DNA from: Eledone cirrhosa
Taxonomy: Eukaryota
Reading direction: 5' to 3'
Assembly: GCA_964016885.1 (NCBI GenBank)
Contig: CAXHJY010000468.1
Location: 1-63,318, forward strand
DNA: 63,318 bases
Shown here: positions 1,201 to 62,073 of the stretch, one piece after another
Position numbering within the stretch: the first letter of the stretch is position 1
How the letters are laid out: every line of letters begins with the position of its first letter
Translations under genes and position numbers: made by a program
Notes under the pieces: generated by a model
Databases searched by the model: none
The model's input: the letters and a program-made list of their open reading frames with translations, nothing else
What the model was told of the DNA's origin: nothing

Positions 1201-2843
1201 ATAAAAACAAATAACGAAACGAAATTAAATTTCGTTTCGTTTGTAACTCACTTTTGTATGACTGACGCTTAAACAATTAAGTTAAAGATGTACATCCATA
1301 TATGTATACTGAAATACTAGTATGTATATGAATACACACACGTATACATATGTAGATGTACTAAGTTTTTTCACTGGTCACTTTACTGTGAGTGGCCAGC
1401 TATTCTGTATGTAAACACACAGACGAACCGGTTTTTAGAGTCATACTGGTTTTTGAGGAAACACCTTTCCTCTATTCTCCAGAAAGCCAGACAAGGAATA
1501 TTGAACTAGTTTCGTTGTTGTTACAACTCATCAGCAATATTTACCTATCTTCCGGCCTCTCTAGAGAATCGTAAAAGCACATATCGTTATATGCTTTTTC
1601 TATGAAAATTAGTAGTGGGCAGACTAATTTGCATAGAGTGTGAGTAAGTACCGGTTCAACGGAGACGATAAAAACAAATAACGAAACGAAATTAAATTTC
1701 GTTTCGTTTGTAACTCACTTTTGTATGACTGACGCTTAAACAATTAAGTTAAAGATGTACATCCATATATGTATACTGAAATACTAGTATGTATATGAAT
1801 ACACACACGTATACATATGTAGATGTACTAAGTTTTTTCACTGGTCACTTTACTGTGAGTGGCCAGCTATTCTGTATGTAAACACACAGACGAACCGGTT
1901 TTTAGAGTCATACTGGTTTTTGAGGAAACACCTTTCCTCTATTCTCCAGAAAGCCAGACAAGGAATATTGAACTAGTTTCGTTGTTGTTACAACTCATCA
2001 GCAATATTTACCTATCTTCCGGCCTCTCTAGAGAATCGTAAAAGCACATATCGTTATATGCTTTTTCTATGAAAATTAGTAGTGGGCAGACTAATTTGCA
2101 TAGAGTGTGAGTAAGTACCGGTTCAACGGAGACGATAAAAACAAATAACGAAACGAAATTAAATTTCGTTTCGTTTGTAACTCACTTTTGTATGACTGAC
2201 GCTTAAACAATTAAGTTAAAGATGTACATCCATATATGTATACTGAAATACTAGTATGTATATGAATACACACACGTATACATATGTAGATGTACTAAGT
2301 TTTTTCACTGGTCACTTTACTGTGAGTGGCCAGCTATTCTGTATGTAAACACACAGACGAACCGGTTTTTAGAGTCATACTGGTTTTTGAGGAAACACCT
2401 TTCCTCTATTCTCCAGAAAGCCAGACAAGGAATATTGAACTAGTTTCGTTGTTGTTACAACTCATCAGCAATATTTACCTATCTTCCGGCCTCTCTAGAG
2501 AATCGTAAAAGCACATATCGTTATATGCTTTTTCTATGAAAATTAGTAGTGGGCAGACTAATTTGCATAGAGTGTGAGTAAGTACCGGTTCAACGGAGAC
2601 GATAAAAACAAATAACGAAACGAAATTAAATTTCGTTTCGTTTGTAACTCACTTTTGTATGACTGACGCTTAAACAATTAAGTTAAACCGGTTCGTCTGT
2701 GTGTTACATACAGAATAGCTGGCCACTCACAGTAAAGTGACCAGTGAAAAAACTTAGTACATCTACATATGTATACGTGTGTGTATTCATATACATACTA
2801 GTATTTCAGTATACATATATGGATGTACATCTTTAACTTAATT
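1201..2843. mobile_element. Retrozyme-like non-autonomous element, 467-bp family: about 3.2 tandem units (1201-2687) plus an inverted partial arm (2685-2843)
   Basis: Identical units start at 1201, 1668, 2135 and 2602. Orientation switches at agttaaa|ccggttcg with AAA microhomology. One HHR per full unit. Flanked by (AT)n on both sides. Confidence 0.85.
1497..1541 (-). ncRNA. Minimal type I hammerhead ribozyme (also at 1964-2008 and 2431-2475)
   Basis: Minus strand aatattg CTGATGA gttgt-aaca-acaac GAAAC-TA-GTT caatatt: perfect 7-bp stem I, 5-bp stem II, palindromic ACTAGT stem III, GUU cleavage triplet. Confidence 0.9.
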
Positions 2844-4530
2844 ATATATATATATATATATATATATATATATAAATATATATAAATATATATATATATA
2901 AATATATATATATATATATATATATATATATATATATATATATATATATATATAAATATATATATATATATATATAAATATATATATATATATATATAAA
3001 TATATATATATATATATATATATATATATATATATATATATATATATATATAAATATATATATATATATATATATAAATATATATATATATATATATATA
3101 TAAATATATATATATATATATATATATAAATATATATATATATATATATAAATATATATATATATATATATATAAATATATATATATATATATATAAATA
3201 TATTATATATATATATATATATATATATATATATATATATATATATAAATATATATATATATATATATATAAATATATATATATATATATATAAATATAT
3301 ATATATATATGAATATATATATATATATATATATATATATATATATGAATATATATATATATGAATATATATATATATATATATATATATATATGAATAT
3401 ATATATATATATATATATATATATATGAATATATATATATATAATATGAATATATATATATATATATATATATGAATATATATATATATATATATATATA
3501 TATATATGAATATATATATATATATATATATATATATGAATATATATATAATATATATATATATATATATATGAATATATATATATATATATATGAATAT
3601 ATATAATATATATATATGAATATATATATATATATATATATATATATATATATATATATATATATATGAATATATATATATATATATATATATATGAATA
3701 TATATATATATATATATGAATATATATATAATATATATATATATATATGAATATATATATATATATATATGAATATATATATATATATATATATATATAT
3801 ATGAATATATATATATATATGAATATATATATATATATATATATATATGAATATATATATATATATGAATATATATATATATATATGAATATATATATGA
3901 ATATATATGAATATATATATATATATATATGAATATATATGAATATATATATGAATATATATATATATATATATGAATATATATATATATGAATATATAT
4001 ATGAATATATATGAATATATATATGAATATATATATATATATATATGAATATATATATGAATATATATATATATGAATATATATATGAATATATATATAT
4101 ATATATATGAATATATATATATATATGAATATATATATATATATATATATATATATATATATATATATATATATGAATATATATATATATATATATATAT
4201 ATATATATATGAATATATATATATATATATGAATATATATATATATATATATATATATATATGAATATATATATATATATATATATATGAATATATATAT
4301 ATATAAATATATATATATGAATATATATATATATATATATATATATGAATATATATATATATATATATATATATGAATATATATATATATATATATGAAT
4401 ATATATATATATAAATATATATATATATGAATATATATATATATATAAATATATATATGAATATATATATATATAAATATATATATATGAATATATATAT
4501 ATAAATATATATATATGAATATATATATAG
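2844..4530. repeat. (AT)n tract; interruptions switch from TAAA to TGAA near 3300
   Basis: Directly visible. Confidence 0.98.
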
Positions 4531-59800: not shown

Positions 59801-62073
59801 TCTAATTGTAATACGTGACGTATTCTATTCTATAGCGATTAGGTCTTCAAAATGTTTATTATAAACATACAGAATATTTTCGAATATTCTATGTCTATAT
59901 TCACATATATATCGCTATTTCAGAGCATTTATTCCAATTTCTAATTTCTGCCGGACCGGCAACCGCTCTTTCAAACCAGTTCCTGTACACAGCTAAGTAT
60001 TCTATAAGTCTCTAGCTGTGTCATTCTCGATAAAAGCACTGGATATGTAGTCCTGATGATTTCTAACGAGAATGAAACGCGTAGATTACTTCCCTTGCTT
60101 TTATCGAGAATCTAATTGTAATACGTGACGTATTCTATTCTATAGCGATTAGGTCTTCAAAATGTTTATTATAAACATACAGAATATTTTCGAATATTCT
60201 ATGTCTATATTCACATATATATCGCTATTTCAGAGCATTTATTCCAATTTCTAATTTCTGCCGGACCGGCAACCGCTCTTTCAAACCAGTTCCTGTACAC
60301 AGCTAAGTATTCTATAAGTCTCTAGCTGTGTCATTCTCGATAAAAGCACTGGATATGTAGTCCTGATGATTTCTAACGAGAATGAAACGCGTAGATTACT
60401 TCCCTTGCTTTTATCGAGAATCTAATTGTAATACGTGACGTATTCTATTCTATAGCGATTAGGTCTTCAAAATGTTTATTATAAACATACAGAATATTTT
60501 CGAATATTCTATGTCTATATTCACATATATATCGCTATTTCAGAGCATTTATTCCAATTTCTAATTTCTGCCGGACCGGCAACCGCTCTTTCAAACCAGT
60601 TCCTGTACACAGCTAAGTATTCTATAAGTCTCTAGCTGTGTCATTCTCGATAAAAGCACTGGATATGTAGTCCTGATGATTTCTAACGAGAATGAAACGC
60701 GTAGATTACTTCCCTTGCTTTTATCGAGAATCTAATTGTAATACGTGACGTATTCTATTCTATAGCGATTAGGTCTTCAAAATGTTTATTATAAACATAC
60801 AGAATATTTTCGAATATTCTATGTCTATATTCACATATATATCGCTATTTCAGAGCATTTATTCCAATTTCTAATTTCTGCCGGACCGGCAACCGCTCTT
60901 TCAAACCAGTTCCTGTACACAGCTAAGTATTCTATAAGTCTCTAGCTGTGTCATTCTCGATAAAAGCACTGGATATGTAGTCCTGATGATTTCTAACGAG
61001 AATGAAACGCGTAGATTACTTCCCTTGCTTTTATCGAGAATCTAATTGTAATACGTGACGTATTCTATTCTATAGCGATTAGGTCTTCAAAATGTTTATT
61101 ATAAACATACAGAATATTTTCGAATATTCTATGTCTATATTCACATATATATCGCTATTTCAGAGCATTTATTCCAATTTCTAATTTCTGCCGGACCGGC
61201 AACCGCTCTTTCAAACCAGTTCCTGTACACAGCTAAGTATTCTATAAGTCTCTAGCTGTGTCATTCTCGATAAAAGCACTGGATATGTAGTCCTGATGAT
61301 TTCTAACGAGAATGAAACGCGTAGATTACTTCCCTTGCTTTTATCGAGAATCTAATTGTAATACGTGACGTATTCTATTCTATAGCGATTAGGTCTTCAA
61401 AATGTTTATTATAAACATACAGAATATTTTCGAATATTCTATGTCTATATTCACATATATATCGCTATTTCAGAGCATTTATTCCAATTTTCTAATTTCT
61501 GCCGGACCGGCAACCGCTCTTTCAAACCAGTTCCTGTACACAGCTAAGTATTCTATAAGTCTCTAGCTGTGTCATTCTCGATAAAAGCACTGGATATGTA
61601 GTCCTGATGATTTCTAACGAGAATGAAACGCGTAGATTACTTCCCTTGCTTTTATCGAGAATCTAATTGTAATACGTGACGTATTCTATTCTATAGCGAT
61701 TAGGTCTTCAAAATGTTTATTATAAACATACAGAATATTTTCGAATATTCTATGTCTATATTCACATATATATCGCTATTTCAGAGCATTTATTCCAATT
61801 TCTAATTTCTGCCGGACCGGCAACCGCTCTTTCAAACCAGTTCCTGTACACAGCTAAGTATTCTATAAGTCTCTAGCTGTGTCATTCTCGATAAAAGCAC
61901 TGGATATGTAGTCCTGATGATTTCTAACGAGAATGAAACGCGTAGATTACTTCCCTTGCTTTTATCGAGAATCTAATTGTAATACGTGACGTATTCTATT
62001 CTATAGCGATTAGGTCTTCAAATGTTTATTATAAACATACAGAATATTTTCGAATATTCTATGTCTATATTCA
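56807..62073. mobile_element. Retrozyme-like element, 310-bp family variant 2: about 8.1 units (56807-59316) plus about 8.9 inverted units (59316-62073)
   Basis: Period 310. Three fixed differences from variant 1 (agaCatag, attctCgtt, gaaAtcatc). Switch at gcgatata|atttctaa. Confidence 0.92.

Follow-up and report, generated by a model that had tools for sequence, protein, structure and literature searches.

Two-armed insertions of Penelope-like elements and retrozymes in Eledone cirrhosa pair two fixed 3' ends, suggesting priming from both target strands

How does a retroelement come to lie in a genome as two head-to-head arms, one of which carries a short extra tail at its 3' end? The question is raised by a 63,318-nucleotide stretch of Eledone cirrhosa DNA (GenBank assembly GCA_964016885.1, contig CAXHJY010000468.1; hereafter the window), a long degenerate (AT)n array interrupted by repeats. 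It has been invaded by Penelope-like elements (PLEs), which form the sister group of telomerase, and by tandem repeats whose units, of 310, 466 or 467 bp, each bear a hammerhead-like core. Inverted pseudo-long terminal repeats (pseudo-LTRs), one of which may carry a tail, and duplications of 8–10 bp are described for PLEs in the sections consulted of PMC3846280, where self-priming on antisense RNA is proposed. In those of PMC8557442, the tail is often at one end, probably from endonuclease resolution, and the origin of the inverted arms and one-sided tail is called undefined. A first-pass annotation of the window, made from its letters alone, proposed that both DNA ends at the cut site prime complementary DNA (cDNA) at two defined RNA positions and that the two cDNAs are then joined.

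RNA polarity was set from open reading frames (ORFs) and from a scan for CTGANGA...GAAA, which we take to be a hammerhead-like motif. The short and long fixed 3' ends of an arm are denoted S and L, respectively, and an insertion with one of each S+L. Families are labelled by unit length (310, 466, 467) or as N (the PLE at 43–50 kb), M (the elements at 13.9 and 35.7 kb) and A/B (copies A and B). In every two-arm insertion of the window, the sense strand was the minus strand in the left arm and the plus strand in the right arm, giving a 5'-5' junction. All 11 were S+L, with both orientations occurring; the annotated asymmetric geometry was thus recovered in either orientation, in 11 insertions rather than the ten counted at first. 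The tails were family-specific, as had been noted. Measured between the first (AT)n-compatible bases, they were 74 (467), 61 (466), 32 (310), 59 (N; 57 in the window copy), 60 (M) and 137 nt (A/B), replacing the earlier values of 72, 57, 30, 53, 56 and 135 nt.

The same six families were surveyed in the 3.0-Gb genome outside the window. Loci were picked by sequence upstream of both ends, those of 466 and N with exact patterns. A regular-expression classifier was valid for the ends of N, M and A/B; it mis-called internal units of the tandem families (310, 466 and 467), so these were tallied by hand reading. An A/B end query containing the tail was biased to L ends and was excluded from the counts. 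S+L was found in 109 of 112 resolved two-arm insertions, or 120 of 123 including the window; independent choice of ends would give half. Among 20 loci of the 310 family, taken from the best matches, 15 were two-armed with both ends, and all 15 were S+L (two off-peak). Of 20 loci of the 467 family, 15 were two-armed (14 S+L, one S/S-like). The 40 regions of the 466 family, the first of 10,518 exact matches, held 18 clear S+L insertions, one possible S/S and five unresolved cases; the remainder were single-armed or broken. For N, S+L was seen in 26 of 27: the first 30 of 3,661 matches gave nine pairs (eight S+L, one L/L') and one S end with an 11-nt L arm, and 17 further close pairs among 100 matches listed were all S+L. 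For A/B (23/23), 11 insertions were resolved among the first 30 of 6,312 matches, one of them with a short end ~48 nt off-peak, and another was unresolved; a further 14 pairs comprised 12 S+L and two unresolved cases. M was S+L in 13/13 among the first 30 of 22,093 matches. Adjacent opposite-strand matches were divergent by 27:3 (N) and 28:1 (A/B) among 100 matches each, 55:4 together. Therefore, the two recurring 3' endpoints, one of each per insertion, extend well beyond the window, as the first-pass annotation predicted. The endpoints were sharp, although L was not always single: a second L point lay 12–14 nt upstream in 6 of the 17 further N pairs, and S ends varied by up to ~9 nt.

The flanks indicate how the ends were placed. 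An informative target duplication was present in 21 of 101 pairs, 18 of these being 10–14 nt long, whereas shuffling the partners over 500 rounds gave a mean of 2.15 and a maximum of 6 duplications. Target duplications are, in the standard reading, the product of two nicks leaving 3' overhangs, and lengths of 10–14 nt suggest that both nicks served as primers. The top strand ran into the left arm and the bottom strand into the right arm, both as antisense; given the arm polarity, each cDNA strand therefore continues a target 3' end. Two duplications, of 13 nt (locus L216) and 11–12 nt (L037), lay in non-periodic DNA with ends still S+L, so a self-complementary (AT)n target, which had been offered as the natural basis of the mechanism, is not required. 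The reported placement of endpoints at AT-rich microhomology was borne out: all 12 family endpoints overlapped (AT)n, by 8, 2, 2, 3, 2, 3, 4, 3, 4, 4, 3 and 3 nt (at least 2 nt in 12/12, at least 3 nt in 9/12). Random break points reached at least 2 nt at a rate of 0.18–0.30 and at least 3 nt at 0.09–0.17, a contrast that is somewhat overstated because the observed value is the better of two phases and the background their average. Ends also shifted to target interruptions matching the RNA, TATG at L (L204, L211, L225) and TTA or TTTA at S (L098, L100, L103). These overlaps and shifts are what primer-template pairing would leave. The tails were also folded to look for a shared reverse transcriptase (RT)-binding structure, and no common fold was found; only the 467 tail folded better than its shuffles (z -2.5), with a related hairpin in 466 (z -1.4), and the six non-467 tails spanned z -1.4 to +1.2.

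The two arms varied independently in length. In 23 N insertions the S arm was longer in 11, the L arm clearly longer in 6 and the two about equal in 6; 17 insertions of the 310 family were split 8, 7 and 2, and either arm may exceed the other by kilobases. L arms of 11 and 22 nt lay wholly inside the tail (L122 and L196, respectively) and therefore cannot be copies of the S arm. A fold-back copy can neither outrun its template nor hold a tail absent from that template; the finding that either arm may be longer thus disfavours fold-back or self-priming. Junction overlap was between -12 and +5 nt in 43 of 55 junctions (one value being an alignment artefact), with some short fill-ins of local repeats, and three M mini-palindromes turned at intrinsic palindromes with 16–32 nt of overlap.

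From these genomic footprints, we consider double-ended target-primed reverse transcription the probable origin of the insertions. A PLE protein, probably a dimer, would bind a sense RNA, whether its own or a retrozyme's, in the region of the pseudo-LTR and tail. Its GIY-YIG domains would nick both strands, usually in (TA)n and ~11–14 nt apart, so that two 3' overhangs result. Pairing over 2–4 nt would place one of these at RNA site S, presumably first, and the other at L, 30–140 nt downstream. Each would be extended into a cDNA that stops independently or runs off the 5' end of the RNA. The cDNA 3' ends would then be joined, presumably by an enzyme, at junctions that show little homology and in some cases a short fill-in; filling of the gaps would yield head-to-head arms, a one-sided tail and a target duplication. 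The first-pass proposal of priming by both DNA ends at two RNA positions, followed by joining, is supported by the 109/112 S+L count, the target duplications, the unbiased arm lengths and the in vitro work available to us in PMC11167929.

We assessed whether both arms derive from one RNA. In 825 A/B mini-palindromes, the two arms both ended immediately 5' of the hammerhead core, to within a few bases, and were joined in many different ways. A non-templated G preceded the stop (the full-length unit has C) in 8 of 50 listed A/B junctions, with 4 ambiguous and 4 running 1–4 bases further (hand count), and at L142 and L156 the G was present on both arms. Copying of the cap is known from work on long interspersed elements (LINEs), and we read the A/B stop and its G as a likely run-off at a capped transcription start. 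An internal pseudo-LTR promoter has been shown for D. virilis Penelope in the part consulted of PMC2377424. N showed a weaker cluster of 5' stops, at 38 places. Among 25 A/B insertions with known junctions, 17 had both arms at or short of the stop, 8 had both beyond it and none was mixed. Arms within an insertion differed by 0–1 nt in 17/17 insertions of the 310 family, where most other loci differed by 2–5, and by 0–3 in 190 nt in 15/15 A/B pairs. Given double priming, one RNA copied twice is, by a narrow preference, the likelier sub-form; it would oblige the L-primed polymerase to displace the S cDNA.

Several observations weigh against double priming as described, or against its single RNA. 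There were three exceptions to S+L. L104 was S/S-like, its left end abutting another element without an AT tract; L063 had S and a degenerate S-like end, with arms 88% alike; and L126/127 was L/L', with one flank duplicated from L124. These may be secondary changes. Single-arm insertions were common, ~25 in 80 retrozyme regions, with either end type. Of 47 pairs with a tract break near an end, 26 lacked an informative duplication. According to the consulted sections of PMC11167929, the start site did not differ between strands and had no homology to the cut DNA. Two long A/B insertions had an L arm extending just 27 and 40 nt beyond the common stop (L227, L229). In two old M pairs the arms were 92–95% alike (L194, L201), and some old 467 pairs were likewise diverged. 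At L058 (2458–2504) and L079 (1920–1992), a 466 L arm lay head to head with the S arm of a ~130-nt family; such cross-family joins imply two RNAs, unless later deletions produced them. Finally, gene conversion between inverted arms could have homogenised them.

Double priming could instead have used a separate RNA for each protomer, with S or L set by protomer position and arm identity owed to a single source locus expressed at a time or to later gene conversion. We regard this form as unlikely, while reserving for it a sizeable share within, not in addition to, the double-priming models. It makes strand displacement unnecessary, and it would explain both the divergent arms of the old M pairs and the joins at L058 and L079, with L on one family and S on the other. 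However, a 5'-stopped arm was combined with a long one in 0 of the 25 Hydra-like (A/B) insertions, and the 17 insertions of the 310 family held no mixed haplotypes despite several young haplotypes. The L079 junction, moreover, retains a remnant of the palindromic centre of the small family, which fits later deletion.

An inverted intermediate may have formed first, by self-priming on antisense RNA (PMC3846280) or by cDNA fold-back, followed by asymmetric endonuclease resolution that leaves the tail (PMC8557442), as far as the consulted sections set this out. Such a route also predicts a single tail per insertion and identical arms, and near-perfect palindromic junctions did occur at intrinsic inverted repeats (the three M mini-palindromes, and 310 junctions near unit position 110–119). 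We nevertheless find it improbable. It does not accommodate an excess of kilobases in either arm, the 11- and 22-nt L arms without sequence common to the S arm, ends that shift to pair with the target, or a stop, common to both arms, at a 5' point of the sense strand that bears a cap-like G. In vitro, moreover, it is the nicked target DNA that primes, at the two borders of the tail (PMC11167929, consulted in part).

Two separate insertions in one (AT)n tract, fused later by deletion, are very improbable as a general account. The tracts are hot spots (63 kb hold 11 two-arm insertions and several single ones), and single arms exist. However, this route predicts S/S and L/L in half of the cases and as many convergent as divergent pairs, whereas 109/112 S+L and 55:4 divergent were observed; one short duplication frames both arms, and the arms share a haplotype. 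The route is thereby refuted for most insertions and may explain a few exceptions. Long palindromes in simple repeats are difficult to assemble, but an assembly or library fold-back artefact is hardly credible, as the mirror ends at family-specific points with a one-sided tail, the flanks are duplicated rather than mirrored and the junctions vary by locus. The N junction at 46960 was not spanned by short-read contigs from four runs; among the loose ends there, another copy had its ORF joined to inverted pseudo-LTR sequence, which is a weak hint.

In LINE-1 twin priming, both target strands prime cDNA and joining at microhomology gives a 5' inversion; the second priming occurs at variable internal sites, the cDNAs come from adjacent RNA parts and a minority of insertions is concerned. 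Here, both sites are fixed and 30–140 nt apart, the arms copy overlapping RNA parts and two arms are the common outcome. Therefore, the first-pass term "twin-priming-like" is apt for the use of both strands, and the insertions are not of the LINE-1 type.

The likeness to canonical endonuclease-bearing PLEs is closer. In the consulted sections of Arkhipova et al. 2013 (PMC3846280), Craig et al. 2021 (PMC8557442) and Schostak et al. 2008 (PMC2377424), these likewise have an inverted 5'-truncated copy beside the main copy, a one-sided tail that overlaps the ORF start in Neptune-like families, and (TA)n targets in the Hydra and Naiad clades. Their tails are 30–40 bp and the rotifer duplications 8–10 bp, compared with 32–137 nt and 10–14 nt here. 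The tail is described there as optional or often present and endonuclease resolution and self-priming are invoked, whereas here the pairing was 120/123 and the arm lengths speak against self-priming. In vitro, PAc (Poseidon of Anolis) nicks AT-rich DNA on both strands and extends both; it uses uncleaved RNA from two internal start sites that bracket the tail, and is predicted to be a dimer, in a system that leaves later insertion steps open (Frangieh et al. 2024, PMC11167929, consulted in part). By a term search, that text neither relates its pair of start sites to the two ends of a single insertion nor treats inverted arms or duplications; it reports no homology at priming, whereas 2–4-nt pairing was seen here. 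The sections consulted of PMC3846280, PMC8557442 and PMC11167929 thus already cover the inverted arms, the tail on one side and the two positions flanking it at which reverse transcription starts; the strict, counted S+L pairing seems to be unpublished, as do footprints that distinguish double priming from self-priming. A literature search found no double-priming model for PLEs, subscription papers, among them the structural descriptions of 2005–2006, being outside its coverage. For metazoan non-LTR retrozymes, PLE dependence has been argued and multimeric cDNA from circles proposed (PMC7761336; bioRxiv 10.64898/2026.07.22.740005; both consulted in part). The elements here share the tandem 310–467-bp units, each with a type I hammerhead-like motif, and the proposed PLE dependence. 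The covered parts of those sources hold no insertion geometry, whereas the retrozymes here show the full PLE footprint (a duplication as well as two arms and S+L), and an arm may hold up to 19 near-identical units, made at insertion.

More tentatively, the normal PLE reaction could be a concerted two-polymerase event, an idea we rate as possible rather than probable. A dimer that cuts with a 12–13-nt stagger would make two copies of a single RNA, starting at the two fixed sites, and the polymerase that trails would displace the cDNA made first. With a circular retrozyme as template, the two polymerases would proceed as rolling circles and produce an entire head-to-head satellite in one step. 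If true, PLEs would integrate in a way distinct from other retroelements, and the tail, the inversion, the tandem requirement and retrozyme mobility would have one common explanation. The S+L rule, duplication length, arm-length independence and 5' stop translate into specific predictions for the in vitro system (PMC11167929), and they tie retrozyme mobility to a PLE enzyme by footprint rather than by co-occurrence. It is also implied that every insertion makes a new kilobase-scale palindrome, thousands of times in the genome.

By their motifs, N and M (the latter through its likeness to N) appear to be Neptune/Nematis-like, and A/B Hydra-like. Both N and M occur elsewhere in the genome as autonomous tandem elements, with units of 4147 and 4151 bp, respectively, and their tails encode the first ORF codons. 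The N ORF has an RVT_1 match below cut-off, YxDD and a GIY-YIG-like motif, and its linker CTNRKCIIC fits CX2-5CxxC between RT and the C-terminal endonuclease, as in Neptune/Nematis; part of the M ORF is 71% alike to it. A/B has an 813-aa ORF with YRDD and a C-terminal YIG motif and no Pfam match. Hydra-clade PLEs are characterised by an RWK-like motif, DKT, a CxCX5C linker and (TA)n insertion (PMC8557442, consulted in part); A/B has RWR, DKT, CNCRNKANC and (TA)n flanks; its unit exceeds the <3 kb usual in that clade. Tandem units or pseudo-LTRs, inverted arms and tails, which are hallmarks of endonuclease-bearing PLEs, were present. The 310, 466 and 467 families are non-coding tandem repeats with a predicted type I hammerhead motif in every unit, as in non-LTR retrozymes. 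Of the type I hammerhead expected in the pseudo-LTR of endonuclease-bearing PLEs, the core motif was seen in N and A/B and not in M, and an Rfam search of the hammerhead-like motifs gave no family at gathering score.

The retrozymes of the window were located as follows. The 467-bp hammerhead retrozyme (1204..2843) has its L arm on the left (3.2 units, sense minus), a junction at ~2686 and a 159-nt S arm on the right (ends L 1204, S 2840). The first 466-family retrozyme (4531..5885) has S on the left, a junction at ~4691 and an L arm of 2.5 units on the right (S 4531, L 5883). The second (30918..34843) has L on the left (4.4 units), a junction at ~32970 and S on the right (4 units; L 30918, S 34838), and the third, of a diverged subfamily (40560..41252), has S on the left, a junction at ~40975 and L on the right (S 40560, L 41252). 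The 310-bp retrozyme at 52311..56251 carries S on the left (7.1 units) and L on the right (5.6 units) of a junction at 54506 (S 52311, L 56249), and that at 56806..62073, of a second haplotype, carries L on the left (8.1 units) and S on the right (8.9 units) of a junction at 59316 (L 56808, S 62073). The 466 and 467 units (33163–33628 and 1535–2001, respectively) have the same hammerhead layout and tail hairpin and ~70% identity over part of the unit; the two families are probably related. The predicted hammerhead cut was not a point of accumulation for arm 5' ends, either in the 310 family (1 arm among the surveyed loci) or in A/B. Five 467 arms (L095, L098, L101, L103, L106) stopped at unit positions 20–34, near the predicted cut and mostly a few bases upstream, possibly at a polymerase pause in the ribozyme core.

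Among the PLEs, the Neptune-like N element (43308..49935; RT and C-terminal GIY-YIG) has an S arm of 3652 nt on the left and an L arm of 2974 nt on the right of its junction. The hammerhead-like motif in its pseudo-LTR lies at 49634..49675 (plus strand), with a mirror copy at 43552 (minus strand), under the Rfam gathering score. An asparagine-rich segment in the N-terminal part of its ORF (46227–46810) recalls the N-rich inserts of rotifer Penelopes (PMC3846280, consulted in part). The M mini-palindromes, of the Neptune-like autonomous family, lie at 13855..14081 (S left, L right, 10-nt duplication; S 13855, L 14080) and 35668..36050 (L left, S right; L 35668, S 36050). Copy A, a Hydra-clade-like PLE (14955..28762), has its L arm on the left (to 17557) and S on the right (L 14955, S 28759), with copy B inside it. 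Copy B, of the same type (21461..27248), has a 448-nt S arm on the left, a junction at ~21905, L on the right and a 12-nt target duplication (S 21461, L 27248). In the A/B hammerhead-like motif (26905–27060; L234), the stem II region places ~130 nt between the core halves.

Single-arm insertions of the window lie at 6813–10904, 37360–40541 and 43131–43262. The first is a Penelope/Poseidon-like PLE with RT and GIY-YIG matches, its N-terminal frame split from the RT frame; the second is another Hydra-like PLE, on the minus strand, with a stop near the linker that breaks the ORF; and the third is an L arm alone of a seventh family. This ~130-nt family has a fixed 5' start and forms S+L mini-palindromes with a tail of ~75 nt at L051, L036, L082, L140, L163, L169 and L223. 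Short remnants lie at 13550–13620 and 14732–14926; one bears a minus-strand hammerhead that is 310-like, and the other belongs to an additional family found at many loci. The (AT)n arrays (1–63080) carry periodic GA or AA interruptions, nearly all on the plus strand, with a GC skew of 1.0 in pure array bins, a pattern that looks like one long array invaded many times. Insertion flanks at other loci retain their own interruption, in a single orientation. At L124–L129, a region of ~100 kb, N insertions and their flanks are duplicated and inverted, likely through rearrangement between palindromic insertions.

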